A DNA stretch of 64,000 nt, from the NCBI GenBank assembly GCA_049322215.1, contig JBMORU010000001.1:194327-258326 (forward strand), given 5' to 3'. The position numbers and the translations under genes are program-made. Each line of letters opens with the position of its first letter. The first letter of the stretch is position 1. Below are positions 27,733 to 48,706 of the stretch, in pieces. The notes beneath the pieces were generated by a model, which worked only from the letters and a program-made list of their open reading frames with translations, made no database searches and was not told the DNA's origin. Origin of the DNA: Patescibacteria group bacterium (lineage in GTDB: Bacteria; Patescibacteriota; WWE3; UBA101185; UBA10185).

Positions 27733-27771
27733 ACATAAAACAATGGGAAGAGCTAAAAGCTCTTTTATGCA

Positions 27772-32118: not shown

Positions 32119-32148
32119 GTAAAGAAAACAAGTATATATTTTGCTGTA

Positions 32149-33564
32149 ATGGTGGGAAATAAACTGAATGCATATATTAAAAATTATCTATATTTAGATT
32201 TGAGATCATTAGCCCTAGCACGCATAGGTATCGGGTTTATAATAATTTTTGACCTAGCAATAAGATATAGACAACTAGAGGATCACTATACAATAAACGG
32301 AGTAATGCCTAATTCAGTAAGACTAAAGGCATTAGCTAATCCATTATTTTCAATACATAATTTAAACGAGTCTGCTGCTTTTCAAACAATTCTTTTTATA
32401 GCAGCGGGTTTAGTAGCGTTTACTTTATTAGTAGGGTTTAAAACCAAAATTAGCACAATTGTATCTTGGCTACTTTTAGTGTCGCTGCAAAATAGAAATG
32501 AGCTAATTTTATTTGGTGGCGACATGCTTTTAGCAATGACCCTATTTTGGGGAATGTTTTTGCCCTGGGGAAAAAAGTTTTCTGTAGATGCTCTTAAAAA
32601 TAAAACTTCCGAAACAAAATATGTAGGAATTGCAGGCATCGGATTTATTCTGCAGGTGAGCTATTTATATATTTTATCTGCAATTTTTAAAACAAATGAA
32701 ATGTGGACTACCGAGGGAAGTGCTACCTACTACGCTTTAACCTCAAGAACGCCTCAAAAACCATGGGTAAATTTACTAATACCTCATGCGGATATTCTCC
32801 AAATAGCAACTTATTTAATATACGTTTTAGAACTAGTGGGGCCATTTTTTATATTTTTACCCATATTTAAAGATAAACTAAGATTTGCAGTAGTTAGTAG
32901 TTTAATTGCCCTACATGTTGGTTTAATATCATTCATGTTTTTATTATTCTTTCCTATTTTAAATATTACTGTGTTAATGGCATTGTTGCCTTCTATAGTT
33001 TGGAAACAAAAACCAGATACTAACAACTTTGTGCAAGACCAAAAATGGAAAAACATACTAGCATTTGCGTTTATAGCATTTTTTTATTATCTAAACTTAA
33101 ATTCGTTTAACAGTGCGTTAGCACCGAAACCACAAATAATAGCACAAGTAGAAAGAAACTTTAGACTAAGACAAAAATGGGTTATGTATGCAAGACCCCC
33201 ACATAGAAGCGAATGGGTTGTAGTTAAAGGTAAGACACAACAAGGCAATGATGTAGATTTAAAACAAGGTACTTTAGCAAATATTGACTACAGCAGACCA
33301 AAATATAGCTTTACACTTATACCTCAAAGAGGTTGGGTAAAATTTGAAGAAGTTTTAAAAAGAGACTTGTACCCCGGACAAATGGATTTATATACAAGAT
33401 TTTGGTGTGAGAAATGGAATAAAAACAATGAAGATAAAATTGAAACATTAGAGTTAATAAATGTTTATCAGGAATACGACGCCGCAACACAAAGTAATAG
33501 CGAAATAAAACAGGAGTTGCTAAAAACTACCGAGTGTAGTTTTAATACTTCTTTACAAGGATGA
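32149..33564 (+). CDS. HTTM-domain protein (vitamin K-dependent gamma-carboxylase-like fold)
   Basis: N-terminal LDLRSLALARIGIGFIIIFDLAIRY matches the signature opening of HTTM domains; about 8 TM helices then a soluble C-terminal domain. Confidence 0.6.
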   Translation: MVGNKLNAYIKNYLYLDLRSLALARIGIGFIIIFDLAIRYRQLEDHYTINGVMPNSVRLKALANPLFSIHNLNESAAFQTILFIAAGLVAFTLLVGFKTKISTIVSWLLLVSLQNRNELILFGGDMLLAMTLFWGMFLPWGKKFSVDALKNKTSETKYVGIAGIGFILQVSYLYILSAIFKTNEMWTTEGSATYYALTSRTPQKPWVNLLIPHADILQIATYLIYVLELVGPFFIFLPIFKDKLRFAVVSSLIALHVGLISFMFLLFFPILNITVLMALLPSIVWKQKPDTNNFVQDQKWKNILAFAFIAFFYYLNLNSFNSALAPKPQIIAQVERNFRLRQKWVMYARPPHRSEWVVVKGKTQQGNDVDLKQGTLANIDYSRPKYSFTLIPQRGWVKFEEVLKRDLYPGQMDLYTRFWCEKWNKNNEDKIETLELINVYQEYDAATQSNSEIKQELLKTTECSFNTSLQG

Positions 33565-34987
33565 TAGAAACATCGTCTAAATAAACGGTCTCCCAGTTTT
33601 TGCTAGTACGTAAGTAGGCAACAAGTGAAGAATTAGGTGTATGAATTATCCAATCAATGTTGTATTTCTCTAGTAAATCTAAATTATCTTTAGGAGATGT
33701 TTCTAAGTTTATATAATCTTCAAAAACCGACTCTCCGGTTTCGGTTCTCCACGAGGGCATGCGCCCATCAATAAATGTCTTGTGTGTTGGAAGTTGCCAA
33801 ATTAAAAAACCTCCCCACTGGTAATTGTTATACATATTTCCCGTTAGGGGAACTTCTTTCAAATAAGTGACAGCGTTATAAGGATAGTCTTTTTTTGCAG
33901 CCCAAACTCTTAGGTCTTTACTACCTGCCAAAACATCAGAATAGTTAAATATTCCATATAAAAACAAAAACCCAAAGAAAAACTTGATCACAAAAGATAG
34001 CTTTTTAGCAAAATACACACCTAACCTTCTAGCTAGCAAATTGTGCGCAAAGTAAAACATATCTAATAATGAAAAAACTGAAATAACCAAAAACAAACGA
34101 ATAAAGTATTGCGATCTAAGAGCTAACAAAGCGAAAAATACAGAAATAAGTAAATACCAGGTATTTTGTACACCTTTCTTTCTGTAAAAATTATAAAAAA
34201 CACATATTGAAATCATTAAATATAAAACAATTAAAACCAAATCCTTTGAAAAGCTTAAAGGGGTCCACTCACCAATATAAGTAAACTGAAAAGGATGTGT
34301 TTCTTTTAACAGGGTTAACCAAAGATTAATACCATAAGGATTTATAAAAGTAAGTAAAACGCCTAAGAATACAAAAAGCAAGTTAAAAACGTTTAATTTG
34401 CTAAAATTGCCTTTTTTCCAAAAAGCATAACTGTCAAATAAAACATAAGTTCCAAAAACAAATAGACCAAGTAAAAAATCGGCATGAACATTTGCCCAAA
34501 GCAAAAAAATCAATGGGGTTAAGAAAAAGTACTTTTGTTTGTAAAAAATTAAAAACATGATTAAAACCATTAACACTGTACTAAAACCCAACGGTCTTAC
34601 AGAAACATTAAATAAAGAAAGTAGCAAAAAATATAAAACGAGCACAAAAGATGAAATATACGTGGGATATGAACTCATAATATAAAAAATATAAGTAAAA
34701 GAGGCAGATATGATTAAACTAAAAACTAGGCTAATTAAAAAACTACCACCAAATGAAAAAAATAAGTGCATTAACACTTGTACCAACCAATAGGAATTTG
34801 CCCAATAATAATTTTGAAAAGTATAAGAAAATAAGTTATGTGACGGAACACTACCTGTTTCAGCTATTATTCTTCCAGATACTAAATGCCATCCAAAATC
34901 AGGGTCAAGAGGAAACTCAAGTAAAATAAATGTACCTAAAACAAATAATATGAAAAAGAATATCTTTTTATTCGCGTTTGAGTTCAT
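33542..34987 (-). CDS. polytopic membrane protein, possible GT-C-fold glycosyltransferase (GT39/ArnT-like)
   Basis: 481 aa, about 12 TM helices, early periplasmic loop DPDFGWHLVSGR; tentative. Confidence 0.35.
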   Translation of the reverse strand: MNSNANKKIFFFILFVLGTFILLEFPLDPDFGWHLVSGRIIAETGSVPSHNLFSYTFQNYYWANSYWLVQVLMHLFFSFGGSFLISLVFSLIISASFTYIFYIMSSYPTYISSFVLVLYFLLLSLFNVSVRPLGFSTVLMVLIMFLIFYKQKYFFLTPLIFLLWANVHADFLLGLFVFGTYVLFDSYAFWKKGNFSKLNVFNLLFVFLGVLLTFINPYGINLWLTLLKETHPFQFTYIGEWTPLSFSKDLVLIVLYLMISICVFYNFYRKKGVQNTWYLLISVFFALLALRSQYFIRLFLVISVFSLLDMFYFAHNLLARRLGVYFAKKLSFVIKFFFGFLFLYGIFNYSDVLAGSKDLRVWAAKKDYPYNAVTYLKEVPLTGNMYNNYQWGGFLIWQLPTHKTFIDGRMPSWRTETGESVFEDYINLETSPKDNLDLLEKYNIDWIIHTPNSSLVAYLRTSKNWETVYLDDVSIILVKKY

Positions 34988-36818
34988 ATAATCTGCTCTT
35001 TATAGCTATATAACCTGGGGCACGTAGATTAAACACTGTTTGAAATTCACTGCCATCTATGGAGACATCTCCTTTATCAGTTTTAAACGTTATTTTTGTA
35101 GTACGTCCGTTGTTGCCAATATCTACGTCGACATCACTAACTTTAGAATACTTGCCACCGTATTTATCAGCCTTTTCAGCCATTTCGTCCACAGAGTAAG
35201 GATCTCCTCCCCAGCAACTTGTTGTTACAGGGGTAATGTGTTTATCATCATCATTAGATCCTTTACGCCAAACTACCCAAGCATTTAAAATATCGGCCAT
35301 TTCTTTTTCATTTAGCCAAGGGGAAGATCTACCGCAGGAATCGCTATCGAACCTGGTTCCTTTTGTCCACCATGCCCAGTAAAACCACGGGGAACCTGCT
35401 TTTTTCTCGTACGCGTCTTTTGGCCAGCTACCACTTACATCCCAACCAACGCCATCATCTATATAGCCGCCTGTTGTAGAAGAATACATTGCGTGCGTAT
35501 CACCACCTATTATTTTTCCTTTAGTATCATCAACAGCTTTTTCCCATCGTTCTGGAGGATTATTAGCTTTACTCTTTAAAAACACCTGACAATTTTGGTT
35601 AGTACAAATAGATTTACCTGCTTTCACATAGCGATAAGCATATGTTCTTGCTGCAATAGCTTGTGCTTTTAGTGCATCTTCTGGCCAATCACTAGGCATT
35701 TCTGCAATTCCATATAAATAATACTGAAAGTCTAGTTCACCTTCACCATCAACTTTTACTTTACTTGGGAAATCGTCTGCTTTTTTAACATCATTTTTAT
35801 AATAAAACTTAATAATGTCTTCGTAGCTATCACCAGCTTCAGCACGACCTTTCGCGCCATACTGACTCATACCTCTATAGTGTGTATAAGCACCATAGCT
35901 AAAAGCTGCAAAGGCAGGGCTAAACGAAGGGCTAGGTACGCTCCAATCAGGAGATTCATAATCACCAACTGTTCCGTTTATATCTGCATTTTTTTGATTC
36001 AAAACCTCTTGCTGCTTGGCACTTAAACTTGCAATTTCTTCAGATAATGACTTTAACTCACCTTCATAGTCACCTTCTTTTTCTTCAATATTGCCCAACT
36101 CAGATTGAGCTAACACTTTTTCGCTGCTTAAGTTATCTCTAACTGCAAGTAAATTGGCCTGGGATTCTTCTAAATCTTGTTTTATTTCTTCGGCGGCTGC
36201 TTTATCTGTTTCAAAATTTGTAATTTCCGCATTTAAGATATCAATTAGCCTTAAAGCTTCCGAAGAAACCGCTTTATCAAACATGTAATTTACAGTGGCA
36301 TATTCAAAGCCATTTAAATTATTATTTTGCACATTTGCAGAAAGTATTATTTCTAAATCTGATAAAATTCCCTTTTGGTAATGAGACCTAATAACTTTAT
36401 TTCTTAATGCGGTTTTTTCTTCTAAGGATCCTCTTCTATCTGTCAAATTTTCCTCTATAACTGTTAATTCTTTAACTAAAGAATCTATACTTAGTTGGAG
36501 TGCATCGATTTCTGATTGTTTTATTGATAACTGGGAAGACAGAGTTGATATTTGCGAATTAACTGCATCTTTTTTATTTCTTAAATCGTTTAATTTAGAG
36601 CTTAATGATTGATATTCTTCTTCTTTTTCTTCCTTTTCTTCAGCATAACAAGCAGCTTTGTCGTCTAAATCACTAATGTTTTTACAAGGGTCTTCGGCAC
36701 TAACAGAAAAAGTAAACAAAACGAAAAATAGTGCTATGAAAACAATTAGGACTTGACTCTTAAAGGATGGGCACGGATAATTTTTACAAGACATACACTG
36801 GAAATTATAGCAAAACAA
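34968..36818 (-). CDS. SpoIID/LytB-domain protein with N-terminal signal/TM and long coiled-coil region
   Basis: C-terminal SpoIID-like motifs (GMSQYGAKGRAEAG, EALKAQAIAARTYAYRY); heptad-rich 60-300 region. Confidence 0.65.
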   Translation of the reverse strand: MFCYNFQCMSCKNYPCPSFKSQVLIVFIALFFVLFTFSVSAEDPCKNISDLDDKAACYAEEKEEKEEEYQSLSSKLNDLRNKKDAVNSQISTLSSQLSIKQSEIDALQLSIDSLVKELTVIEENLTDRRGSLEEKTALRNKVIRSHYQKGILSDLEIILSANVQNNNLNGFEYATVNYMFDKAVSSEALRLIDILNAEITNFETDKAAAEEIKQDLEESQANLLAVRDNLSSEKVLAQSELGNIEEKEGDYEGELKSLSEEIASLSAKQQEVLNQKNADINGTVGDYESPDWSVPSPSFSPAFAAFSYGAYTHYRGMSQYGAKGRAEAGDSYEDIIKFYYKNDVKKADDFPSKVKVDGEGELDFQYYLYGIAEMPSDWPEDALKAQAIAARTYAYRYVKAGKSICTNQNCQVFLKSKANNPPERWEKAVDDTKGKIIGGDTHAMYSSTTGGYIDDGVGWDVSGSWPKDAYEKKAGSPWFYWAWWTKGTRFDSDSCGRSSPWLNEKEMADILNAWVVWRKGSNDDDKHITPVTTSCWGGDPYSVDEMAEKADKYGGKYSKVSDVDVDIGNNGRTTKITFKTDKGDVSIDGSEFQTVFNLRAPGYIAIKSRLYELKRE

Positions 36819-37165
36819 TGCTTAAAACTATACGTAATAAAAAAACAATATTAGTTTCATTAGGTATTTACTATTTCAATACTCTATTACTTTTAATGCT
36901 TCCTCAACAAGCATATGCACAATGTACCGATCCTGATACATGCGATCTTGGCGATTTAATTAGATCGGTATATGATGTAGCACGCCCCCTAGCAATAATA
37001 TTTGGTTTTATAATGATATTGGTTGCGGGTTACAAAATAACTACAAGCCAAGGAGACCCTATGAAAGTAAAAGTAGCAAAAGAAGACATGTCTTCTGCTA
37101 TACTTGGTTTAATATTTGTGCTTATTGCTGTGGGATTTTTAAGAATGATACTAAATAATTTATAA
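36818..37165 (+). CDS. small secreted two-helix membrane protein, VirB2/TrbC-like pilin candidate (paralog 1 of 4)
   Basis: Signal peptide ending AYAQ; hydrophobic helix, conserved S/T-x-GDP-x-K-x-A core (SQGDPMKVKVA), second hydrophobic helix. ORF-track start 36767 trimmed to MLKTIRNKK. Confidence 0.45.
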   Translation: MLKTIRNKKTILVSLGIYYFNTLLLLMLPQQAYAQCTDPDTCDLGDLIRSVYDVARPLAIIFGFIMILVAGYKITTSQGDPMKVKVAKEDMSSAILGLIFVLIAVGFLRMILNNL

Positions 37166-37185
37166 AATAAAAGGAGGTGTAAAAA

Positions 37186-37518
37186 ATGATATTACAAGAT
37201 GTATATGCTCAAATACCAACCACGGTAGTACAACCTCAACCTTTAGGTGTTACTACTCTAGCTGATGCTTTTGGTATTGCGACCAACGTTATTTTAGGAG
37301 CAGGTGTAGCTTTAACAGTTATCTTCTTAATTTTAGGAGGTATAAAATACATGTCTGCTAAGGGAGATCAAAAGGCAGCTGTAGAAGCAAGAAGTGCTTT
37401 AACAAACGCAGTTATTGGATTTATCGTAGTTATTGGAGCTTTCACAATTAGAATTGTTGTAACTAGTGTTATCGGTGGTAATGAAAACGTTGCAATACAA
37501 GACGTTGTACCTAACTAA
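37186..37518 (+). CDS. VirB2/TrbC-like pilin candidate (paralog 2 of 4)
   Basis: AGGAGG RBS 9 nt upstream; same helix-KGDxKAA-helix architecture (MSAKGDQKAAVEA). Confidence 0.45.
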   Translation: MILQDVYAQIPTTVVQPQPLGVTTLADAFGIATNVILGAGVALTVIFLILGGIKYMSAKGDQKAAVEARSALTNAVIGFIVVIGAFTIRIVVTSVIGGNENVAIQDVVPN

Positions 37519-37591
37519 AGAAGACTTTTCGGGACCCTGGGAAACCAGGGTCTCATTCAACAGTTTTTAGTTTATTGAATTTAGGATTATC

Positions 37592-37909
37592 ATGGCAGTT
37601 TTTGCACAGTTTGATGAGCATTTGCCTTCGGGATGCGAAGGGTGTGATGCAATAGAAATAGGAGAAATATTAGCAGTAGGCGTAAACTTATTTATGGGTA
37701 TTGCTATTTCAATGTCAACCCTTGGAATGTTATATTCAGGGGTTAAATGGGTTATGTCAAAAGGAGACCCAAAAGCAGTTGCAAATGCCAGAACTTCTTT
37801 GGTTTATAGTATAATTGGTTTCATTTTAGGTATTGGAGCACTATCTTTGAAGGTAGTTGTATTCAACAATATTGGAGATCCAGGAATAGATGATGTACCA
37901 AACTTTTAA
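37592..37909 (+). CDS. VirB2/TrbC-like pilin candidate (paralog 3 of 4)
   Basis: Same architecture (MSKGDPKAVANA). Confidence 0.45.
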   Translation: MAVFAQFDEHLPSGCEGCDAIEIGEILAVGVNLFMGIAISMSTLGMLYSGVKWVMSKGDPKAVANARTSLVYSIIGFILGIGALSLKVVVFNNIGDPGIDDVPNF

Positions 37910-38333
37910 AAAAACTTTAATTACACTTGTTTTAACACTAACATTATTTGCAAATTTTAGTGGAGTTGCCTATGCACAAGATTGTGACATTGGTGATGAA
38001 CCTACCCCTGTACAAATTGTTTGCCCTTTGCAAAAAACTTTAGTAGTTATTTACTACAGCTCAGGAGCGTTTTTTTTAATAATGGTTTTTGTTACTTCTT
38101 ATAAATTCTCAACATCACAGGGTGATCCAAAGGCAATGCAGGCAGCAAAACAGTCTTTAACATATACAGTACTTGGATTTGTTTTAACTATAACTACTTT
38201 TGCAATAACGTTTTTTATAGGAAGACAATTTGACTCGCCTTCACTAGCCGATCCAAATAGTCCTTTTACAAGCTTAACTACAGGAATATGTAATATATTG
38301 CAGTTTGCTAATATAAGCGCTCCGGGCTGCTAA
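37890..38333 (+). CDS. VirB2/TrbC-like pilin candidate (paralog 4 of 4)
   Basis: Signal peptide ending AYAQ; STSQGDPKAMQAA core; C-terminal Cys-containing extension. Confidence 0.45.
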   Translation: MMYQTFKKTLITLVLTLTLFANFSGVAYAQDCDIGDEPTPVQIVCPLQKTLVVIYYSSGAFFLIMVFVTSYKFSTSQGDPKAMQAAKQSLTYTVLGFVLTITTFAITFFIGRQFDSPSLADPNSPFTSLTTGICNILQFANISAPGC

Positions 38334-38349: not shown

Positions 38350-38883
38350 CTAATAGGCTTCTAAAAATTCTCCGGGAGCAGGAGGAGTTGATATCCATAC
38401 GTAACGCACAGGCTCAACAAGCTTTTCTCCATTTGCACCTGTTAGTTCAACAGTAATTACGTACCTGGTATTTGGTTCCCATGGTTTACGTGGAAAAACT
38501 CTAACCTTAGAAGGATCTTCCTCAACAAGTACTTGAGCACCTAATTGAATATCAGGAGTTACAAAAATTTTTACAGAATCTTCTTTCACTGGAGCTGAAA
38601 ATGTCATGTGAATTATTTGAAATTCGTTATAAAAGTATTTATCTAAGTCATTTGCAGGAGGATCTACTTCTAATAAAAAGATTTCACCAACTTCTCCTGG
38701 CTGGGGTTTATCATCAATACCGGGAATACCTCCTGGTGTATCAGGTACCACAACCGGGTTTTGAGGAGTACGTGGCGCTGACGTGGGACGCAGAAAATAA
38801 TAAAGTATTACAAAACCTATTATTAAAACAAGAATTACAACTGCAGCTTTGTACTTTTTTAAACGCTCAATAAAGTTTTTCAT
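38350..38883 (-). CDS. hypothetical membrane-anchored protein with Pro-rich stalk (T4SS-locus associated)
   Basis: N-terminal TM AAVVILVLIIGFVILYYF, Pro-rich linker, about 100-aa C-terminal domain. Confidence 0.4.
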   Translation of the reverse strand: MKNFIERLKKYKAAVVILVLIIGFVILYYFLRPTSAPRTPQNPVVVPDTPGGIPGIDDKPQPGEVGEIFLLEVDPPANDLDKYFYNEFQIIHMTFSAPVKEDSVKIFVTPDIQLGAQVLVEEDPSKVRVFPRKPWEPNTRYVITVELTGANGEKLVEPVRYVWISTPPAPGEFLEAY

Positions 38884-38907: not shown

Positions 38908-41900
38908 TTAATCTTCTGGCCACCAAGAAGGTGCTCCTGGAGGCGTACCAGAACATAATCCTGAAGTTTCAGGTCTTACGGTACTACCACCTGCATCTTG
39001 AGCTTCTATATGAACGTGAGTATTGTTACCCCAGTTAAAAGTAGAGGAAAATGCTTCGCCAGGTAAATAGTCACCACCTTGAGCATTACCTAAATGCTGA
39101 ATTTTAATGGTCAGCCTTGGAGTACCATCTTGTGCAAACCCTTGCGCAGTAACAGCTTGTCCCAATGACAAACTGTAAGGCTCAGATACTGTCCAATAAG
39201 AAACATCCCCTGCAGAGGGTAAACAAACAGTTGAATCCTCTTGATAATCAACAGGGAATACATCCCATGCAAAACCAAATTCATTGCCTTGAGGTACAGT
39301 GCCATTATTGTAACAATAGTTATCTTGTGGAAAAGTACCTCCTCCGGTATCAGCATTTAAATTTGGTGCTCTTAAAGCAACACCAAGCGAAGGAATATAA
39401 GAATTACACAAAGTAATTGGTACTGCATCCCAATAAGTATTTGATCCATGACCACCTCCTGGATGTACAGCAGTGTCATTTCCTCGGTAAGAACCCACTG
39501 TAAAACCGTCTACATCTTTAAAAAAACAAAAGTTTTCGCAATATAGTTCTCCATAATTAACATCCCCCACAGGACCCCCTTCAACTTCTACATCACAGCC
39601 ACCGCCACAACCACCCACTTTTCTTGTAGGATCTATAGGAGAAATAGTAGTGAACATACCCATAATCACTATTATGGTTACTGCCATAACACCGGCCAAG
39701 GGCAAAGTACCTAAAGCTACCCATTTCATAAGTTTAATAAACATTGCTTCGGCACCACTTACTAATGAAGAAAAGTCTAAGTGAATTATTGCTTTACCTA
39801 CGGCTTCTAGAGCGTCAAGTATTTTTATAATCAAATACTGAATGGCAAGCTTTAAAGGAGTAGCAATACCCTCGGAAGCTACTAAAATAGCGTCGGTTAT
39901 TAATTCTGCAAGTATTTTCTTTAAATATTGTATTGGGGCTACAACTGCAGCTAGTTTTGTAAATGCTGCAGATTGTAAAACGTTAAGAGCTGAAGTTAAC
40001 TTTTGTAATGCACCACCATATTCCTCTGTAATTTTTAGTAAATTAATTTTGGAATTTCGCAAACTCAACTTTTGAATCAATTCATATAAAGCTGATTCGC
40101 TTAGCTGAATACCTTGTTTATCTAAAAAGGCACGAAGTTTTTGTATTTTGTCATACAATTCTTCAACTTTAACAGGAACAACTAGCTTCATGTCTTTAAG
40201 CATTTCGGCTAATTCTTCTACACTTTTAGCACCAAAAAGGCGTTGTAGGTTTTCTATTCCACCTTTTTCTCCTAATTTCAAAACTTCGTTTAGTAAATCT
40301 ATATCTTCAAAGTGTTTTCCTCCCTGAAGGGTTAAAGTTGTAACAACACCGTTTATAGTTACATCAACTTTTAGCTTATTTGAAAAAACACCAAGCTTCA
40401 TTAACTGTTGGAACGGAGCATACGCTAAGTCTTTATAATCTGAGTCATAAACTAAGCCGAAGCCATGTGTTCTCTTTATTAAGTATTCTTCAATTAACTT
40501 AGCTGGAGTAATTGGAAAGCGAATTTTAACCTTCATCCAAACTAAGTTGTTAAGAAATATTCCACTGCTTAGTTGTGACGAAATATCGCGGGCGGTTTCT
40601 CTTAAACGCATTACTTGAGCAATATCCATCCATGATGCAATTTTTGCACCACCTTCAATACCAAAAGAATTCAATATTTCTATAACGTAAGGAGCATCAG
40701 GCATTTTACTGCCCTTTAATAAACGCTCTTCCATTAAATATTTCAAAAAGGTGCGCTCTACACCATCACCAAAAAGAGATCCTTTACCTACAACGTCTGC
40801 AACTAAAGACCCACCTGAAAATCTATCTTTAAATACTTCTATTCTCGTAGCTAAAGTACGCAATGCAGCACCATCCCCTGCCATAGCAGCTTCTACTAAA
40901 GGGGTAAACCCTGTGTCGGTACGTTCATCAAAAATTGCTTTTCTAAAGTCATCAACAAAGTTATGTAAAGGTTTGACTGAATTTTCAAAAACCTCAACCA
41001 TTTCAGTCATGCCGCTTATAGTATCTTGCGCATAAGCACCACTTAAAGACGTAGCAAGCCCTTGTGCACTGGTTAGTTGTTTATCTAAAAGCTTCAATGC
41101 TGAATCTAAAGACGCTTCATTACCTTCACGTAAGGCTTTAGACACAGCCTTGTTAGCATTATTTATAGTTTTTCCAATACCACCTAAAGTAGTTGCTAGC
41201 TCAAACTCATCAATTGCAGTATTAATTGTGGTAGATATTTGAGCTAAATCCTCAGCACTATTTAATAAAGGATTGCTACCTAATAATGAGTCAGATAATA
41301 CCTTAACTTTCTTTCCATCAATTGTTCTTTCTACAAAATGGGTATTTTTAATCTCTTCTAAATGAGCCTTGTATATGTCAGCACCTTTTTGTGCAACCCC
41401 TATATAACTGGAATCTCTTGCTGTAGGACTTCTTTTATCGTTAACGAATTTACCAAAAGCAGTAGTAAATTCTTCGTACATATTTATATTTTTATCTACT
41501 TCTGCTACCGAAGAAGCCTGACCTTTCACATACCCTGAATAATCATAAAGTTTTTCTACACGATTAACTGTTTCATCGGCTAAAGATAAATCTTTACCCA
41601 TACGTTGTTGTAACAAGTCTTTTGCAGTATCAAAGCCGAAACCAAGCTTACCTTTACCATTCATCATGGCAACAAACATGTCTCTTTCAGCACGCAAATC
41701 CATGTCGGAATAACTGAAAAACTCAGTGCCCATACTTTTAACAAAGCTAGAAACACCTTTTTGAGGTTGAGTTACCATTTTATGTAAATCAACCTTTAAC
41801 GAAGTTACACCGGCAAGTTCTTCTTCATCTCCCGAAGCTTGAACATCGACCATGTCAAATTTTCTTGGGGCTCCGGTTACACGCAAAGATCTTTTAGCAT

Positions 41901-42111
41901 CGGCAACCATGTTGTTATATACAAATGTAATTGGAGTAGCAGGTAACTTATAAGCTTCTGAAATTTTATCAAAGGCTGCATCAATATCAGCATCTAAATC
42001 TTCGTAGATGCTGAAGTCACTTTCATAAGGTCTTGAATAGAATCTACCTTGTGCAGGTATCTTTCTATCGCCCGGATAGTATCCGATATTAAACGGGTTA
42101 CCACTTGCCAT
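38908..42111 (-). CDS. large (1067 aa) membrane protein with C-terminal extracytoplasmic M23-like peptidase domain (putative T4SS-associated cell-wall hydrolase)
   Basis: About 800-aa cytoplasmic helical region, TM block at about aa 790-830, then Cys/Gly-rich domain with AVHPGGGHGS and THVHIEAQDAGG, resembling the M23/LytM H-x(n)-D and HxH zinc motifs. Confidence 0.45.
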   Translation of the reverse strand: MASGNPFNIGYYPGDRKIPAQGRFYSRPYESDFSIYEDLDADIDAAFDKISEAYKLPATPITFVYNNMVADAKRSLRVTGAPRKFDMVDVQASGDEEELAGVTSLKVDLHKMVTQPQKGVSSFVKSMGTEFFSYSDMDLRAERDMFVAMMNGKGKLGFGFDTAKDLLQQRMGKDLSLADETVNRVEKLYDYSGYVKGQASSVAEVDKNINMYEEFTTAFGKFVNDKRSPTARDSSYIGVAQKGADIYKAHLEEIKNTHFVERTIDGKKVKVLSDSLLGSNPLLNSAEDLAQISTTINTAIDEFELATTLGGIGKTINNANKAVSKALREGNEASLDSALKLLDKQLTSAQGLATSLSGAYAQDTISGMTEMVEVFENSVKPLHNFVDDFRKAIFDERTDTGFTPLVEAAMAGDGAALRTLATRIEVFKDRFSGGSLVADVVGKGSLFGDGVERTFLKYLMEERLLKGSKMPDAPYVIEILNSFGIEGGAKIASWMDIAQVMRLRETARDISSQLSSGIFLNNLVWMKVKIRFPITPAKLIEEYLIKRTHGFGLVYDSDYKDLAYAPFQQLMKLGVFSNKLKVDVTINGVVTTLTLQGGKHFEDIDLLNEVLKLGEKGGIENLQRLFGAKSVEELAEMLKDMKLVVPVKVEELYDKIQKLRAFLDKQGIQLSESALYELIQKLSLRNSKINLLKITEEYGGALQKLTSALNVLQSAAFTKLAAVVAPIQYLKKILAELITDAILVASEGIATPLKLAIQYLIIKILDALEAVGKAIIHLDFSSLVSGAEAMFIKLMKWVALGTLPLAGVMAVTIIVIMGMFTTISPIDPTRKVGGCGGGCDVEVEGGPVGDVNYGELYCENFCFFKDVDGFTVGSYRGNDTAVHPGGGHGSNTYWDAVPITLCNSYIPSLGVALRAPNLNADTGGGTFPQDNYCYNNGTVPQGNEFGFAWDVFPVDYQEDSTVCLPSAGDVSYWTVSEPYSLSLGQAVTAQGFAQDGTPRLTIKIQHLGNAQGGDYLPGEAFSSTFNWGNNTHVHIEAQDAGGSTVRPETSGLCSGTPPGAPSWWPED

Positions 42112-42227
42112 ACATAATATTCTATATATAAAAAAGAAGATTTCAAAGACATGAAAAATTCAAAGTAATAATTTCAATTTTGCAAAGGTGTTGAATTTGA
42201 TAAAAATTTGTGAAAAAATTGCTGTAG

Positions 42228-43610
42228 ATGACAAAGAGACTCTTAACCACAACATTTATAACATTACTAATAACAGGTGTTTTCGTTCTTGTGCCTAGAA
42301 ATGTTTTTGCGCAAGATTCTTGTAATATTGGAGAGGTTAATGGATGTACATTTACACCCGCTCCAGATGGAAATGCAGAAAAATGTTTATTCGAAGGTGA
42401 AAGAGCAAACCATCCCCTTTTAGACATTAGAAGAACAATGAAAAATTCTATAGTTTCTTTACTTGTAGACACTGGTACAAGTGTTGCAACAGGTAGAAGT
42501 TTAAATCAAATCATTGATTGTATTGGACAGGAATATGCAAACATTTGTAATGCAGGTTCTGATCAAGATTATTGGAATGCCGTTGGTGAACAATGTGGTT
42601 TTTCAGTCATCCCTGGTTCTAATGCTGCAGCCAGAGCACGCGGTAGTTTGGCAGGTATTACTTACACAGTAGGTAGTGCTATGAGTGCAGATCATCCTAT
42701 TCCCACAAACTTAGCTCATTATTTTAGATATCAAGTAAGAAACGTACCTGTATTGGGCGATAGAGTTTACGCTCAAGTAGATTACAATATTTTAGGAGCA
42801 GACTTTATACTACAGTTATGGCAAGTGTTTAGAAACGTCGCTTACGGAATATTAGCAATAGTAATGATAGTAATAGGTGTAATGATTATGGTACGCAAAA
42901 AAATCAGCCCTCAGGTAATTGTAACCGTACAAAACGCCTTACCAAGAGTAGTGCTAGGTGTATTGCTTATTACATTTAGTTACCCAATAGGTGCTACAGG
43001 AGCTGCTTTAATTTGGCCATTAAGAACCGTAGTAGACGGGATAATGAATGATCTTGGAGCAGGCTTTGCAGTTTCCGAAGCAGGATTTGGTGCAATTGTA
43101 ATGTTAATAATCACAGCTGTAATAGCAGGTATGTTTTTTGGAGGCCCTATAGGAGTAATGGCAATTGGGCTATCTGCTGTATCTTTGACAATAATGGTAA
43201 TGTTAATATGGATAATAATTCTATTAATTGCCTTAATGAAAACAATAACCGTGTACGTAAGAATATTAATGATGATAGTGTTTGCTCCCGTTCAATTTGC
43301 AATAGGTACTGTGCCGGGCAATGAGAAAATGATTAAGGATTGGTTTAAGTTATTAGCTGCAAGAATAGTAGCCATACCCGCAATGTATTTTATGATTTCA
43401 TTAGCAGGATTCATAATTAATCAATCACTAAACGCAGGTTTTGATCCAGCAGCATCTCCAGCAGGAAGTGAGTTACTAGCTTGGTTAGAAGCATCAGGAC
43501 AAACAGCAGTTATAATGTTATTCGTTCCATTCTTGTCCATTTACTTACTAATAACAGCCGTAGGTATGCCTAAGAAAATAGAAAAGTTATTCATGGGCAT
43601 CAAGAGATAA
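42228..43610 (+). CDS. VirB6/TrbL-like polytopic membrane protein
   Basis: Signal peptide, about 180-aa extracytoplasmic N-domain, then 5-6 TM helices rich in Gly/Ile/Met; position in locus consistent with VirB6. Confidence 0.4.
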   Translation: MTKRLLTTTFITLLITGVFVLVPRNVFAQDSCNIGEVNGCTFTPAPDGNAEKCLFEGERANHPLLDIRRTMKNSIVSLLVDTGTSVATGRSLNQIIDCIGQEYANICNAGSDQDYWNAVGEQCGFSVIPGSNAAARARGSLAGITYTVGSAMSADHPIPTNLAHYFRYQVRNVPVLGDRVYAQVDYNILGADFILQLWQVFRNVAYGILAIVMIVIGVMIMVRKKISPQVIVTVQNALPRVVLGVLLITFSYPIGATGAALIWPLRTVVDGIMNDLGAGFAVSEAGFGAIVMLIITAVIAGMFFGGPIGVMAIGLSAVSLTIMVMLIWIIILLIALMKTITVYVRILMMIVFAPVQFAIGTVPGNEKMIKDWFKLLAARIVAIPAMYFMISLAGFIINQSLNAGFDPAASPAGSELLAWLEASGQTAVIMLFVPFLSIYLLITAVGMPKKIEKLFMGIKR

Positions 43611-43679: not shown

Positions 43680-45776
43680 ATGGCTTTAAAAGACACACAA
43701 AAAGTAAATAAACAGCACGCAGTACCACAAAATATAATGGATGTGGAATTTAAAATAATTGGTGAATTAACTATGCGCCAATTTTTTTACCTTCTTATTT
43801 TTGGGGGAATTGGATATGGAGCATTTACACTTATCAGTAATTCTTTAATTAAATGGCCAATAATTTTGGCTTCAGCAGCATGTGGTTTACTGTTAGCATT
43901 TGTACCAGTGCAAGAACGAAGCATAGACGAATGGGTGGTTAACTTCTTAAGGGCTATATACAGAACCAATCAAATGATTTGGCGAAAAGATCCTACAATT
44001 CCAACCGCCTTCCTATACCAAAGTCTGGATGTAGTAAGACAGGAATTAATTACATTAGCACCTACTTCTAGTAGAAGAAAATTAGAAGAGTATCTGCAAT
44101 TTAAAGATGAACCCAAAGTTAGTGACGATCTTGATATTCCAGAAATTGATTTTATACAAAAAGTACATCAGGCATTTGCATACGATGCTAAACAAACAAA
44201 GAAAGCACAAAGTAGCATTAAAACAACACAATTTAACACACAAGTCACACAGCAAGTACAGGCACCGCCTCAGATAACTACTACGACACAACAACCAATA
44301 GCTATGCCAAAGCAACAAGTGACACCACCTGCCGAAATACCTAATCAATCAGCACCAAAAATTAACCCACATCCTACAATTGTACAGGAGTCTCCTGTAA
44401 CACCATCTAAAAAAGAAACTATATCTCCTATAGAAGTACAACCTGACACTTCATCTAAAAATGACACCGAAAATAAGCAAAATACTAGAGATATGCTTAA
44501 TAAGACCGAGCAACAACCACAAGCACGTACTGTAATCAAGCCTCCAGAATTGCCAAAAAGAGAGACGAAAAATCAAGAACTAAGTAAACCAACTCCTCCG
44601 CAGTTTAATATAGCCAAAAAGCCAGAACCAGAATTACAGCAACAACCTCAATTTAAGCCAGAGCTACCAAAATTTGAAGTATCAAAAGAAACAAATGAGC
44701 CTTCAACACCAAAGGTAGCTACAGAAAAGGAGGAAACACAAGACACTATTAACAGAGTCACACCAGCACCAGCACCAGCACCAGCACCAGCACCAGCACC
44801 AGCACGGCAAGAGGCACCTCCCCAACCTCCAGAGCTAGAGTTGCCAGACATTGAAACGGGACAGGATTTAACACTTGTGCCTATTACTCCCAACAGGCAT
44901 ACTGGAAGAAGATTCACTAGCTTATTACCAACTCAAGGTGAGATATTATTACCCATACGCGGAGAAAGAGTTTTAAAAACCACAGAAGAAGCTAATATAG
45001 AAAATGAAATAGCTGAAAAAGCTAAGCAACTAAGACTAATGATTGAACAAATAAAACAAGACGAAAAATTCAGATCTACTATAACTAAATTTCAAACTGC
45101 TAAGCCTTTGCAGGAAGATGGTTATAAACTACCAAAGATAGAAACAGCAGAACACGAAGCACAGCTAAATAAAGAAGCAAAAGAAGTTATAGAAACAGTA
45201 GAAGAAGAAAATACAAGATTAACAAAAGAAATAGAACAATTAAAAACAGATTTGGAAACCACAAATAAACCACAAGAAGCGCAAGAAAAGAAAGAAGAAT
45301 TAACCAAGTTAGAACAAGAAAAAGCCGAGGTATTAAAAAACTACGAAGCATTAAAGCAAAAAGTACAAGAACTAGAAGAAAAACTAGAAAAAAAACAAGG
45401 CGAACTGCCTAAAATAATAGTTCAAAAAGTTTACGATAACGGAGGCACCGACACACAACCAACAACTAACCCTACAATAGCTCAAATACAACCACTAACA
45501 AATGCGCCTAACATTATATCTGGCGTAGTAAAAAGCACCAATGGTGAAACATTAAGTGGAGTTGTAGTAATAATAAAAAACCAAAAAAATGAACCAGCAA
45601 GGGCGCTAAAAACAAATGCATTAGGACAATTTTCGATAACTACACCTTTATCTAATGGTACCTATATTATTGAAGTAGACAAGTTTAATAAAACTAATTT
45701 AAGCTTTGATATAATAAGCATTGAAGCTAAAGGAGAGGTTCTTCCACCTTTGGAATTTGTAGGAAAACCAGTTTAG
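43680..45776 (+). CDS. VirB3-like membrane module fused to a long Pro/Gln/Glu-rich linker, coiled coil and C-terminal CarboxypepD_reg-like beta-sandwich domain
   Basis: N-terminal about 100 aa with two TM helices (FFYLLIFGGIGYGAFTLI; WPIILASAACGLLLAFV), like VirB3/PrgI; (PA)8 repeat; EQLKTDLE... coiled coil; C-terminal ISGVVKSTNGETLSGVVVIIKN. Confidence 0.4.
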   Translation: MALKDTQKVNKQHAVPQNIMDVEFKIIGELTMRQFFYLLIFGGIGYGAFTLISNSLIKWPIILASAACGLLLAFVPVQERSIDEWVVNFLRAIYRTNQMIWRKDPTIPTAFLYQSLDVVRQELITLAPTSSRRKLEEYLQFKDEPKVSDDLDIPEIDFIQKVHQAFAYDAKQTKKAQSSIKTTQFNTQVTQQVQAPPQITTTTQQPIAMPKQQVTPPAEIPNQSAPKINPHPTIVQESPVTPSKKETISPIEVQPDTSSKNDTENKQNTRDMLNKTEQQPQARTVIKPPELPKRETKNQELSKPTPPQFNIAKKPEPELQQQPQFKPELPKFEVSKETNEPSTPKVATEKEETQDTINRVTPAPAPAPAPAPAPARQEAPPQPPELELPDIETGQDLTLVPITPNRHTGRRFTSLLPTQGEILLPIRGERVLKTTEEANIENEIAEKAKQLRLMIEQIKQDEKFRSTITKFQTAKPLQEDGYKLPKIETAEHEAQLNKEAKEVIETVEEENTRLTKEIEQLKTDLETTNKPQEAQEKKEELTKLEQEKAEVLKNYEALKQKVQELEEKLEKKQGELPKIIVQKVYDNGGTDTQPTTNPTIAQIQPLTNAPNIISGVVKSTNGETLSGVVVIIKNQKNEPARALKTNALGQFSITTPLSNGTYIIEVDKFNKTNLSFDIISIEAKGEVLPPLEFVGKPV
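44759..44806 (+). repeat. hexanucleotide microsatellite (CACCAG/CCAGCA) x about 7.5 encoding (Pro-Ala)8
   Basis: caccagcaccagcaccagcaccagcaccagcaccagcaccag read directly in the sequence. Confidence 0.85.
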
Positions 45777-45777
45777 T

Positions 45778-46482
45778 ATGGCAGCACAAAGTGTAAAAGC
45801 AACAACTCAAGATCATTTAGACATAGAAGATATTAAAGATAACTTCGTTGTGTTGAAAAATGGAACAGTATGTTCTGTATTGCAAACTACAGCAGTAAAT
45901 TTTGATCTTCTATCTGAAATCGAGCAAGATGCTATTATTGCAGCATTTTCTATGTTATTAAACTCAATAACATTTCCTGTTCAGGTTGTTATTAGATCAA
46001 AAAAACTGGATATAACAAAATATATAGAAAAAGTCATAAAGGTAGAAAATAAACTTACAGATCCGCTAATTAAAAGACAGGCAGAATCTTACAGAAAATT
46101 TGTACAAGAAATTATTCAAAAAAATGAGGTTTTAGATAAACAATTTTATGTTGCAGTACCCGCAGGTGACAACATGATTACAGAAGTAGGATCTAATCCG
46201 TTCGACTTTTTAACCAAGTTGTTTGGAGCTCAATCAAAAAGAGTCAATGTTAATGTAGATGCAGCAATAAGTGGCGCACAGGCAAAATTAATGCCAAAAG
46301 TAGATCACATAGTTAATGAGTTTAATAGAATTGGAGTAAAAACTAGGCAATTAACTACACACGAACTGGTAGAATTATATTTCGATATATATAATCCAGC
46401 ATCTGTGCACGGGCAGAAAATAAGAACAGATATAGAAGATTATAAAACAGCTATAGTAGAACCAGCTATATTTGCAGAATAA
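45778..46482 (+). CDS. hypothetical protein resembling a VirB4 N-terminal domain
   Basis: DHLDIEDIKDNFVVLKNGTVCSVLQTTAVNFDLLSEIEQDAIIAAFSMLLNSITFPVQVVI follows the layout that opens VirB4/TraE N-domains; starts 1 nt after the upstream stop. Confidence 0.4.
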   Translation: MAAQSVKATTQDHLDIEDIKDNFVVLKNGTVCSVLQTTAVNFDLLSEIEQDAIIAAFSMLLNSITFPVQVVIRSKKLDITKYIEKVIKVENKLTDPLIKRQAESYRKFVQEIIQKNEVLDKQFYVAVPAGDNMITEVGSNPFDFLTKLFGAQSKRVNVNVDAAISGAQAKLMPKVDHIVNEFNRIGVKTRQLTTHELVELYFDIYNPASVHGQKIRTDIEDYKTAIVEPAIFAE

Positions 46483-48706
46483 AAATACTATGAAATTGTT
46501 TGGCAAGAAAAAACAACAAAATGCGAATACTGAAAATCAAACCCTAGCGCAAAATCAAGCAGGGGCTCAAAAAGTAAATGCAGCACCTCCAATAACAACA
46601 CCAGAAACAAGAGCAAAGAAAAACAAAAATAAAAACGAAGAAAAACCTGCCGAAATGTTGGCTAGAGGAATGGTTAATATCAAAGATATAGTAGCACCAC
46701 CTGCTATCGAGGTGGATTTTAACCATATAAAAATTGGGAATAACTTTTACAGAACATTATTTATTTCAGGATACCCTAGATTTGTAGGCGCAAACTGGTT
46801 ATCTCCAATAATTAATTTTGAACATACTTTAGACATTTCATTTTTTTACTATCCTGTGAAATCAAAAGGTGTTTTAGATGACTTAAGAAGAAAAATAACG
46901 GAAATGGAAGCTACAATGCATTCTGATGAAGATAGAGGTAAAATAGCCGACCCTGGTGTAAAAATAGCATTAGACGATGCAAAAACTTTACAGGAACAAC
47001 TAGTAAAAGGTGTTGAAAAATTTTTCCAGTTTTCCTTTTATATAACTATTAGAGCAAATTCCATGGAAGAATTGGAAAATGCTGCCAGTAAATTAGAATC
47101 AACATTGGGATCACTATTATTAATATCAAAATCAGCAACTTTACAAATGGAGGAAGCTTTTCAATCTACAGTACCTGTAGCCCTAGATAAACTATTAATA
47201 ACTAGAAACATGGATACAACTAGTTTAGCCACTACATTTCCTTTTACATCGTCAGATTTAACATCTGACGATGGAATAATGTACGGACTTAACAAGCACA
47301 ACGGTTCTTTAATTATTTTTGACAGATTCTCTCTTGAAAATGCAAATACAGTAGTATTTGCTAAATCCGGTTCAGGTAAATCGTATTTTGTGAAATTAGA
47401 AGCACTTCGTTTAATAGCATTTGGTGCAGAAATTATTATTATTGACCCCGAAGCAGAATATAAACCAATCGCTGAGGTTATTGGTGGAGATTTTATAAGT
47501 TTTTCTTCTACTTCACCGGATAGAATAAATCCATTTGACCTTTCAGGTATTGCTACAGAAGGGGAAAATGAATTAGGTCAAAAGATTTTATCTTTACACA
47601 CGCTATTTAAACTTGTACTAGGAGATTTAACACCCATTGAAGAAGCTATATTAGACAGAGCACTAATTGAAACATACAGAATAAAAGGAATTACAACAGA
47701 TCCAGATACACAAAGAACAAAAGAACCTCCTGTAATGGAAGATTTATACAAGGTACTTTTAGGTGCAGAAGAACCAGAAGCAAGAAGCATGTCAGAAAGG
47801 TTAGAAAAATATATTAGAGGCTCTCTAGCAGGAATTTTTGACCAACAATCTACATTAAGAATAGACAATAGAATGACTGTATTTTCTACACAAAATTTAG
47901 AAGATGCTTTAAGACCAATTGCTTTTTACATTATTTTAGACTTCGTTTGGACGAAAGTTAAAAAAAGCTTAAAGAAAAGAATTTTAATAGTAGAAGAGGC
48001 TTGGTACTTGTTACAAAACGAAGACAGCGCACGCTTTATTTATGGTATAGCAAAAAGAGCCAGAAAATATTACTTAGGTTTAACAACGATTACTCAAGAC
48101 GTAGATGACTTTTTAGCCTCAGATTATGGAAAAGTCATTGTTACAAATTCATCTATCCAAGTGCTTTTAAAACAGCACCCTGCAGGAATTGATAGACTAG
48201 CTGATACATTTTACCTATCTGAGGGAGAAAAGCGTTTACTGCTCGCTGCAGAACGCGGAGAAGGACTATTTTTCGCTGGAGCTAATCACGTAGCCATTAA
48301 AATCATGGCTTCCGAAGAGGAACACAACTTAATTACTACAAACCCTGAAGAAATTTTAAGAATGAAGGAACAACGAGAACAAGCTCAATTACAAGCGGCA
48401 CAACCACAACCAGGAAGTACAGATAAAAAGTATGAAAGATTTGAAAGATTAGACCCAAATAGATACACTACAAACCCAAATGATTCAACACGTCCTGCAC
48501 AAGCACCAAATCCTATGAGCAGCCCTATGCAACCTGGGCCTTTGCCAAATCAAAACCCAATAGTACAACCAACAATGCCTATGCAATCACCGCAACCCAC
48601 ACAAACTCCAACACCGCCACAAAACAACGCTGAAACAGTAAGTTTAAATACTGAAGACCCACAGGATAATACAGGAACAATTTCGCTTTCAAATAATCAA
48701 GTTTAA
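46472..48706 (+). CDS. VirB4/TraE-family type IV secretion ATPase with Gln/Pro-rich C-terminal tail
   Basis: Walker A VVFAKSGSGKS, IIIDPEAEYKP and Walker B-like RILIVEEAWYL segments typical of VirB4; N-domain YRTLFISGYPRFV; last about 110 aa low complexity (QAQLQAAQPQPGS...PQPTQTPTPP). Confidence 0.75.
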   Translation: MQNKNTMKLFGKKKQQNANTENQTLAQNQAGAQKVNAAPPITTPETRAKKNKNKNEEKPAEMLARGMVNIKDIVAPPAIEVDFNHIKIGNNFYRTLFISGYPRFVGANWLSPIINFEHTLDISFFYYPVKSKGVLDDLRRKITEMEATMHSDEDRGKIADPGVKIALDDAKTLQEQLVKGVEKFFQFSFYITIRANSMEELENAASKLESTLGSLLLISKSATLQMEEAFQSTVPVALDKLLITRNMDTTSLATTFPFTSSDLTSDDGIMYGLNKHNGSLIIFDRFSLENANTVVFAKSGSGKSYFVKLEALRLIAFGAEIIIIDPEAEYKPIAEVIGGDFISFSSTSPDRINPFDLSGIATEGENELGQKILSLHTLFKLVLGDLTPIEEAILDRALIETYRIKGITTDPDTQRTKEPPVMEDLYKVLLGAEEPEARSMSERLEKYIRGSLAGIFDQQSTLRIDNRMTVFSTQNLEDALRPIAFYIILDFVWTKVKKSLKKRILIVEEAWYLLQNEDSARFIYGIAKRARKYYLGLTTITQDVDDFLASDYGKVIVTNSSIQVLLKQHPAGIDRLADTFYLSEGEKRLLLAAERGEGLFFAGANHVAIKIMASEEEHNLITTNPEEILRMKEQREQAQLQAAQPQPGSTDKKYERFERLDPNRYTTNPNDSTRPAQAPNPMSSPMQPGPLPNQNPIVQPTMPMQSPQPTQTPTPPQNNAETVSLNTEDPQDNTGTISLSNNQV

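Follow-up and report, generated by a model that had tools for sequence, protein, structure and literature searches.

The wall hydrolases of Gram-positive type IV secretion systems (T4SSs), known as VirB1-like proteins, are membrane-anchored and carry extracellular enzymatic domains (PMC12857230). In PrgK of Enterococcus faecalis pCF10, a DELTA-class protein of this kind, an intracellular domain (residues 1-253) is followed by a transmembrane helix (254-274) and then by LytM, muramidase and CHAP modules (PMC11323569). Here, a protein of 1067 amino acids (aa) is compared with these hydrolases. Its gene lies in a 64,000-nucleotide (nt) stretch of DNA, hereafter the window, from a Patescibacteria group bacterium of the WWE3 lineage (assembly GCA_049322215.1, contig JBMORU010000001.1, positions 194,327 to 258,326).

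In the one species of Patescibacteria tested, epibiotic growth depends on the T4SS, the role of which is described as completely unknown (PMC10633639, PMC11665869). These systems possess pilin arrays, usually no relaxase and few VirB1 homologues near virB4; the surveys propose other enzymes for the role, naming 'peptidase and lysozyme homologues' that might stand in for VirB1 without defining a family (PMC12102498). The T4SS cluster of Candidatus (Ca.) Southlakia epibionticum, SEML1_0004-0019, is essential, and SEML1_0007, a 1113-aa hypothetical protein adjoining VirB4, is itself essential in transposon sequencing (PMC10633639, Tables S1/S2). SEML1_0007 has no Pfam match; DPAM assigns a Hedgehog/DD-peptidase domain to residues 951-1105, and Foldseek, applied to the whole chain, ranks a 'Peptidase M15B' protein (TM 0.63) and a 'Peptidase M23' protein (TM 0.61) closest. 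After it come a lysozyme/cysteine-protease protein, SEML1_0006, and then an exported immunoglobulin (Ig)/PEGA-like protein (PMC10633639).

On balance, the 1067-aa protein is probably a PrgK-like, VirB1-analogous wall-hydrolase subunit of a T4SS/pilus of WWE3-like Patescibacteria, with a large inner domain and a variant M23 head. It consists of a helix-rich N-domain of ~795 aa, a transmembrane helix, a Gly-rich linker and a Cys-rich C-terminal domain (CTD) of ~200 aa. As in the Gram-positive VirB1-like classes (ALPHA, BETA and DELTA; PrgK, TraG of pIP501, Orf14), the gene stands in a T4SS cluster and the product has a predicted membrane anchor with an outer enzymatic domain. The SLT/muramidase and CHAP domains that define those classes are absent from the window protein, which has a LytM-like head only; CHAP- and SLT-like heads occur in some relatives. 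Scans against Pfam and NCBIfam, neither of which includes the mating-pair-formation (MPF) profiles TrsG, CD419 and VirB1, gave no match.

With PrgK, the protein shares an MPF-FATA-type T4SS cluster, a predicted intracellular N-domain, one transmembrane helix and a LytM fold as the first extracellular module, a likeness of topology and context, no sequence homology having been demonstrated. The inner domain of PrgK is ~253 aa long and poorly predicted, whereas that of the window protein is ~795 aa long, well predicted and strongly conserved. Three heads are present in PrgK (a degenerate LytM domain, an active muramidase and CHAP), whereas the only head of the window protein is LytM-like, with Asp, His and HxH retained. 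With SEML1_0007 of Ca. Southlakia epibionticum ML1 it has in common a similar size, an origin-proximal T4SS cluster, a long unannotated N-region, a C-terminal cell-wall peptidase, an Ig/PEGA-like protein encoded further on (after the lysozyme gene in the case of SEML1_0007), and swapping between M15B and M23 among structural neighbours. The SEML1_0007 head, however, is assigned to an M15-like Hedgehog/DD-peptidase fold in place of LytM/M23, and its gene is downstream of VirB4, whereas the window gene is divergent from VirB6. Because architecture, context and head swapping match, the window protein is probably the WWE3 counterpart of SEML1_0007.

The LytM-like head and the inner domain

A first-pass annotation of the window had described a Cys/Gly-rich C-terminal domain resembling LytM/M23 endopeptidases, quoting the strings AVHPGGGHGS and THVHIEAQDAGG; both are found in the protein, whose residues ~835-1067 contain 15% Gly and all eight of its Cys. 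The resemblance holds for the fold and fails for Pfam PF01551, which gives no match. The LytM/M23 fold of the CTD is well supported by a profile search and by a structural model. A homogeneous alignment of 37 CTDs, with no Pfam-detectable M23 sequence among them, yields a profile for which 8 of 9 matches in the PDB are M23/LytM chains; the matches include StM23 (9gy1, E 1.2e-4), ShyA (1.1e-3), SpoIIQ, NMB0315 and LysTt72. In the motif alignments, 'llHL' of the family falls on 'Y.HL' of M23, and 'kHvHiE' on 'pHLHfE'. The AlphaFold2 (AF2) model built on the same alignment exceeds a predicted local distance difference test score (pLDDT) of 90 over the beta core of the CTD. Among the relatives, PF01551 matches 2 of 43, both with a different head type, and a BLAST comparison of the CTD with approximate sequences of LytM and lysostaphin gave nothing significant.

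Like canonical M23 enzymes (LytM, lysostaphin, ShyA, StM23; PF01551), the head combines a beta-fold with a central His, an HxH-Glu motif and an Asp on the first strand. The catalytic positions Asp950, H1006, H1032 and H1034 are invariant in the 37-CTD alignment, together with H888, G889, Y893, C902, P907, C933, G946, A948, P965, W973 and P1047; C862, G984, G1018, E1036 (at least 90%), E1048 and C1053 are near-invariant. The window family differs from the canonical enzymes in having no Pfam match, a Gly for the HxxxD His and an upstream His in the consensus motif GHG[ST]NxYW, and it adds four conserved Cys (C862, C902, C933 and C1053). At the position of the first zinc-ligand His of M23, four residues before Asp950, Gly is found in 59 of 76 CTDs and His in none. 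The HxH-like motif of the earlier reading is thus present as H1032-V-H1034, whereas the M23 metal-ligand triad, against which that reading was to be judged, is incomplete. Alignment of the CTD profile with hhalign to the sole Pfam-recognised M23 head of the family (P0024) places D950 on its Asp, a weak match (E 0.08) used for register only. The distance from Asp to HxH is 78-103 aa in the CTDs, close to the 77 aa of LytM (D214 to H291).

The upstream His lies 38-92 aa before the Asp, across a variable Cys-containing insertion. In the AF2 model of the CTD, His888 forms an isolated single-residue beta-bridge and hence packs against a strand. We hypothesize that His888 is the relocated first zinc ligand, a substitute for the HxxxD His. 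An M15/LAS reading of YGxAxD as 'HxxGxAxD' was rejected: the residue at D-7 is Pro, Ser or Asp, not His, and the fold search leads to M23 rather than to Hedgehog/DD-peptidases. In P0024 itself (locus L006, 10001-13357), Tyr occupies D-4 and His D-7 (CFHGDGYRPVD); displacement of the first histidine may thus extend more widely among the M23 heads of this lineage. From SpoIIQ, to which it is 15-16% identical, the window protein differs in its large cytoplasmic domain, where SpoIIQ has only a short anchor at the N-terminus, and Bacillus SpoIIQ lost zinc binding, whereas the window family keeps four of five catalytic positions.

The head is predicted to lie outside the cell, with the N-domain inside. 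By hydropathy, the protein has no signal peptide, and its first ~700 residues contain no hydrophobic segment. The full-length AF2 model reaches a pLDDT of 75.9 and a predicted template modelling score (pTM) of 0.65. Its N-domain is confident over residues 60-740 (mostly pLDDT 80-93) and mostly helical with several beta-hairpins, the long helices spanning residues 286-329, 332-362, 368-393, 701-746 and 751-776; the first ~44 residues, despite their conserved motif, and the linker at 823-850 are disordered. The earlier description of the first ~790 aa as helical and free of a signal peptide agrees with both analyses, which add a few beta-hairpins and two moderately hydrophobic helices at ~709-776, and the membrane block placed after it corresponds to one strong transmembrane segment at 797-826. 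Among 77 relatives, Lys and Arg in the 15 residues flanking this helix average 2.19 on the N-side and 0.77 on the C-side, the N-flank count being higher in 58, equal in 17 and lower in 2. The proportion of Cys rises ~60-fold, from 0.05% in the N-region to 3.0% in the CTD, where the number of Cys is even in 69 of the 77. Because of these flank charges, the distribution of Cys and the ~800-aa N-region without a signal peptide, an N-in/C-out topology with a disulfide-bonded outer head is likely, and the extracytoplasmic position given to the CTD by the first-pass annotation is upheld as a prediction.

Conserved residues of the N-domain include the following. In the N-terminal peptide, G10, Y11, Y12, P13 and G14 are conserved at 77-93%; in the block of residues 521-560, T535, P536, F551, G552 and L553 reach 86-100%; and near the membrane the conserved residues are G700, L709, N710, Q713, G748 and K763.

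An exhaustive HMMER search recovered 91 representative clusters, defined at 50% identity, at E<=1e-3, and 55 at E<=1e-10; word-indexed protein searches with the single protein, the CTD alignment and the full-length alignment returned only the protein itself or nothing. Nearly all members are 1000-1250 aa long and follow a common plan: an M..NPFYPGYYPGD N-terminus, ~750-1000 aa without a transmembrane segment, one strong transmembrane helix and a CTD of 215-250 aa. The N-domain is retained while the type of head varies. In a sample biased toward the head type of the query, the window-type M23-like head is carried by 57 of the 91 representatives, an HExxH head (YLFAHE[TA]GH) without Pfam match by 16-17, a CHAP/NlpC-P60 head by 6 (Pfam CHAP down to 6e-7), a lysozyme/SLT-like head by 6 (motif-based only, with one weak SLT_2 match), a Pfam-positive M23 head by 1 (1.8e-8) and a C39/C70-like head by 1. 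The M23-like, CHAP and SLT heads, though not HExxH, are domain types of Gram-positive T4SS hydrolases (PMC12857230); the HExxH profile gives a faint match only in the PDB, to the VgrG2b effector metallopeptidase (E 0.11). The fusion, earlier called unusual, is therefore no one-off: it defines a conserved Patescibacteria family, and its plan of inner N-terminus, membrane helix and outer hydrolase is known from PrgK. The unusual aspect is that the inner domain is so large (~800 aa) and so conserved.

The gene and its cluster

The 1067-aa open reading frame (ORF) was found as first described, and its location on the minus strand, on which the earlier description was silent, is now explicit. Its length of 3.2 kb in DNA of 35% G+C and its many distant homologues mark it as a real gene, and the ATG start is supported by the conservation of M-x(2-4)-NPFYPGYYPGD across the family. 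The divergent intergenic region separating it from the VirB6-like gene measures 116 bp (42112-42227). No Shine-Dalgarno sequence is visible before the ORF; together with the promoter-like site close to the ATG (Table 1), this suggests that the mRNA may be leaderless. Promoter-like matches in the region around the ATG are no more numerous than expected from shuffled sequence. A 109-aa GTG-started ORF (42143-42472, minus strand) runs antisense across the beginning of the VirB6-like gene, has no Pfam match and is probably spurious.

Table 1 Coordinates in the window of the protein's segments and motifs and of the neighbouring genes
Feature	Coordinates	Strand	Basis or remark
Whole ORF, 1067 aa, stop codon included	38908..42111	-	Single ATG-started ORF; identical to hypothetical protein ACOZAO_01265 of an NCBI metagenome-assembled genome (MAG) of a Patescibacteria group bacterium, on a 1.11-Mb contig
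Promoter-like TTGAAA-16 nt-TAGAAT	42119..42146	-	End 7 nt from the ATG of the 1067-aa ORF; weak evidence
Residues 1-30, N-terminal peptide MASGNPFNIGYYPGDRKIP, conserved yet disordered	42022..42111	-	Family consensus NPFYPGYYPGD-P; pLDDT <50
Residues 1-~780, family-specific N-domain, predicted cytoplasmic	39772..42111	-	Helix-rich with beta-hairpins, Cys-free
Residues 521-560, most conserved N-domain block (..W.K.K.R....TPA.....L.R.H.FGL..D)	40432..40551	-	Mean top-residue frequency 0.47
Residues 701-776, pair of conserved helices close to the membrane, moderately hydrophobic	39784..40011	-	Hydropathy; AF2 helices 701-746, 751-776
Residues 797-826, single predicted transmembrane helix	39634..39723	-	Kyte-Doolittle peak 2.38; AF2 helix 781-822
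Residues 827-860, Gly-rich disordered linker with the first Cys residues, DPTRKVGGCGGGCDVEVEGGPVG	39532..39633	-	pLDDT 30-45
Residues 861-1056, LytM/M23-fold domain, predicted extracytoplasmic, with family-specific N-terminal extension	38944..39531	-	
GHGSNTYW (887-894), invariant His888 motif, candidate replacement for first zinc ligand	39430..39453	-	H888, G889, Y893 invariant in 37 CTDs
FGFAWD (945-950), strand equivalent to M23 'HxGxD'	39262..39279	-	Gly946 at His position, Asp950 invariant; column counts
His1006, equivalent of M23 central catalytic His (Y-x-H-L)	39094..39096	-	Invariant; aligned to 'YgHv/YLHL' (PDB profiles)
H1032-V-H1034-I-E1036, M23 HxH motif	39004..39018	-	Invariant/near-invariant; aligned to 'pHLHfE' of StM23, ShyA
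177-aa membrane-anchored Ig-like (Big_5) protein, co-oriented, directly downstream	38350..38883	-	Pfam Big_5 E 2e-4
Array of four VirB2-like T4SS pilin genes	36767..38333	+	PF18895 at 2e-8 to 1e-5
616-aa SpoIID-domain protein (lytic-transglycosylase type)	34968..36818	-	PF08486 1e-18; N-terminal transmembrane/signal segment, ~250-aa coiled coil
460-aa polytopic membrane protein, VirB6 position, divergent	42228..43610	+	Signal/transmembrane plus ~5 transmembrane segments; conserved neighbour
PrgI/VirB3-like (698 aa), TrsD/TraC-like (234 aa) and VirB4-like ATPase (744 aa)	43680..48706	+	PF12666 9e-12, PF19044 1e-26

The window covers the replication-origin region, with rnpA, yidC, jag, dnaN and dnaA at 48.7-53.5 kb. 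The Gram-positive-type T4SS context proposed for the gene is borne out by its neighbours, and the cluster is the origin-proximal T4SS, related to MPF-FATA, that is known from Patescibacteria chromosomes (PMC12102498). From its position and topology we infer that the 460-aa protein is VirB6-like, a Pfam scan giving no match.

The neighbourhood is kept around relatives of 22-31% identity (loci L001, L003, L005, L006, L007, L011, L023, L039 and L049). In the loci L001, L003, L005, L006 and L007, the order is the divergent VirB6-like gene, the target gene, an Ig-like Big_5/PEGA gene, three to five pilin genes and the SpoIID gene; L006 and L007 additionally carry PrgI, TraC-like, VirB4 and dnaN as in the window, and PF26593 matches orthologues of the PrgI/TrsD/VirB4 block proteins there. 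The Big_5 gene has a homologue at the same position in L001, L005, L007, L011 and L049, the SpoIID gene is syntenic in L001, L003, L005, L006, L007 and L039, and a pilin array adjoins every family member with enough flanking sequence. Synteny is unchanged where the head is a zincin (L003) or a Pfam-recognised M23 domain (L006). The closest VirB4 relatives, at 58-78% identity, mostly bear the names of candidate division WWE3 or of generic Saccharibacteria/Patescibacteria MAGs. Among 43 loci fetched by VirB4, the target gene lies within 10 kb of VirB4 in 6 (L011, L014, L023, L039, L049 and a further, partial copy). What is tightly linked to the gene is therefore the VirB6-like/pilin/SpoIID module, and VirB4 only sometimes.

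Many WWE3-like genomes (loci L012, L013, L015, L026, L033 and L050) possess a closely related PrgI-TrsD-VirB4-dnaN block with no target/VirB6-like/pilin module nearby. In L013 (4373-7570), L015, L033 and L050, a co-oriented protein of ~1020-1066 aa with one transmembrane segment near residue 410-475 is encoded upstream of PrgI; these proteins are ruled out as relatives of the N-domain, with no match even at E<=10. The two arrangements flanking PrgI point to at least two cluster layouts.

Further features of the cluster proteins deserve mention. The four tandem VirB2-like pilin paralogues are divergent, each with Cys residues near the mature N-terminus, and fit the 'pilin arrays' of Patescibacteria. 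The PrgI/VirB3-like protein (43680-45776, plus strand) comprises a ~90-aa PrgI domain with two transmembrane helices, a very long stretch of coiled coil and low complexity rich in Pro, Gln and Lys, and, at the C-terminus, a CarboxypepD_reg (Ig-like) domain; at 698 aa it is far larger than classical VirB3, and its orthologues in related loci measure 449-744 aa. The gene of the VirB4-like ATPase (46472-48706, plus strand) starts with TTG and shares 11 nt with the TrsD-like gene; its product has Gln/Pro-rich low-complexity extensions at both ends. The SpoIID neighbour and the LytM-fold protein, whose best structural match is SpoIIQ, echo the engulfment and feeding-tube toolkit of sporulation. A phage tape-measure identity, conceivable for a long helical protein with a hydrophobic segment and an M23 domain, was rejected: there is no PHROG match, and the gene belongs to a T4SS cluster rather than to a prophage.

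Farther from the module, a tmRNA gene (tag ADEDVLVAQPAMVGAFA) adjoins smpB (27327-28233, minus strand); in L001, L005 and L007, too, smpB lies close to the target-pilin-SpoIID module, so a wider synteny is conserved. Between the SpoIID and NHL-repeat genes, positions 30874-34987 encode a GT87-family glycosyltransferase and two polytopic membrane proteins of 471 and 481 aa without Pfam match; the GT87 gene and that of the 481-aa protein recur beside the module in L005 and L006. The 1193-aa product of positions 20861-24442 (minus strand) contains carbohydrate-binding modules of types CBM6/CBM35 and is likely a surface polysaccharide-binding protein, of a kind reported as essential envelope proteins in Saccharibacteria.

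Weighing the proposed role

As a PrgK-like hydrolase subunit, the protein would keep its ~795-aa N-domain in the cytoplasm, where it would dock the enzyme onto the membrane platform of VirB4, TrsD, PrgI and VirB6; the disordered but conserved NPFYPGYYPGD peptide is a possible docking motif. The Gly-rich linker would give the disulfide-stabilised head its reach to the wall. There, the head would bind zinc, with His888 in place of the missing HxxxD histidine, and cut peptide cross-links of the peptidoglycan locally. Together with the neighbouring SpoIID-type glycan cutter, it would open a passage for the channel and the VirB2-like pilus through the cell's own wall, and possibly also through the host wall at the contact site.

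Several observations weigh against this proposal. The 1067-aa protein has no match to PF01551 even at E<=1, and the canonical HxxxD His is replaced by Gly in the CTDs of the family. Because that His is an invariant Gly, catalytic competence would hinge on the candidate substitute His888. The N-domain has no recognisable relative, searches of the protein against Pfam, NCBIfam, PHROGs and PDB sequences being blank, and its docking role is one we purely infer. Linkage to VirB4 is not obligatory.

The altered zinc site also raises the possibility that the LytM-like head is catalytically dead and has a scaffolding or regulatory function, like SpoIIQ, EnvC/NlpD, DipM and the LytM domain of PrgK. It would then bind peptidoglycan or a partner, for example activating or positioning its SpoIID-type neighbour or ringing the channel, with the N-domain anchoring it to the machine. 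The missing first zinc ligand, with its invariant Gly946, the constant SpoIID-domain neighbour and the degenerate, regulatory LytM domain of PrgK (PMC11323569) all favour such a role. PrgK-LytM, however, lacks both HXXXD and HXH (PMC11323569), whereas D950, H1006, H1032 and H1034 are invariant here, E1036 is near-invariant and an extra His888 is present. Sister heads keep intact motifs (Cys/His of CHAP, HExxH), an argument for an enzymatic function of the head. Loss of several catalytic residues is common to degenerate LytM domains besides that of PrgK, a further point against a dead head, and we consider this explanation unlikely.

The exchange of heads can be read in two other ways. A conserved N-region joined to a swappable C-terminal enzyme, as found here, is typical of polymorphic toxins, and Patescibacteria T4SSs, which usually lack a relaxase, are suspected of effector delivery (PMC12102498, PMC11665869). 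The protein would in that case be an effector against the host bacterium: the N-region would be a trafficking or delivery module, the hydrophobic helices would insert into the target envelope, the C-terminal enzyme would attack the host wall, and the downstream membrane-anchored Ig-like protein would be an inhibitor or immunity factor. The faint resemblance of the HExxH heads to VgrG2b, a type VI secretion system effector, is in line with this, as is the variation of the downstream gene with the head: across eight loci compared, it is homologous (Big_5-like) among those with M23-like heads and different in the zincin, PEGA (L006) and SLT-like loci. That covariation, however, comes from few loci and is confounded by phylogeny, and the downstream gene is conserved across the loci with window-type heads. 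The target gene is single-copy in a fixed position of the core cluster, the strong transmembrane helix and the positive-inside bias predict stable anchoring in the producer, and housekeeping T4SS hydrolases already account for anchored SLT, CHAP and LytM heads. To our knowledge, known T4SS substrates carry C-terminal, not N-terminal, signals. An effector is accordingly the least probable of the explanations considered. In the other reading, the head would not, or not solely, open the producer's own wall as a housekeeping enzyme; it would breach the host wall at the epibiont-host junction, within a SpoIIQ/SpoIID-like 'feeding conduit' formed with the SpoIID-like enzyme and the VirB2 pilus; head swaps would track host wall chemistry, and the M23 head would be a new catalytic variant with its first zinc ligand moved upstream. 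This is a speculative proposal that we hold to be improbable, and if true, it would make the gene a host-range determinant of Patescibacteria. The PrgK-like hydrolase subunit remains the explanation we prefer.

Meaning for Patescibacteria

Precedent exists for the topology and the role proposed here, and a counterpart gene has already been flagged as essential. Undescribed so far are the ~800-aa domain, the modular exchange of heads and the split His...Asp arrangement. The gene family is a concrete candidate for the VirB1 role, in which a large inner domain is coupled to an exchangeable wall-cutting head, and it provides a defined target for genetics in tractable Saccharibacteria. The head variants form a natural domain-swap series with which to ask whether the cell's own wall or the host wall is cut, and the M23-like head may represent a new M23 active-site arrangement. 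In conclusion, the ~800-aa domain, which has no recognisable relative, may reveal how the cytoplasmic face of monoderm T4SSs is organised.

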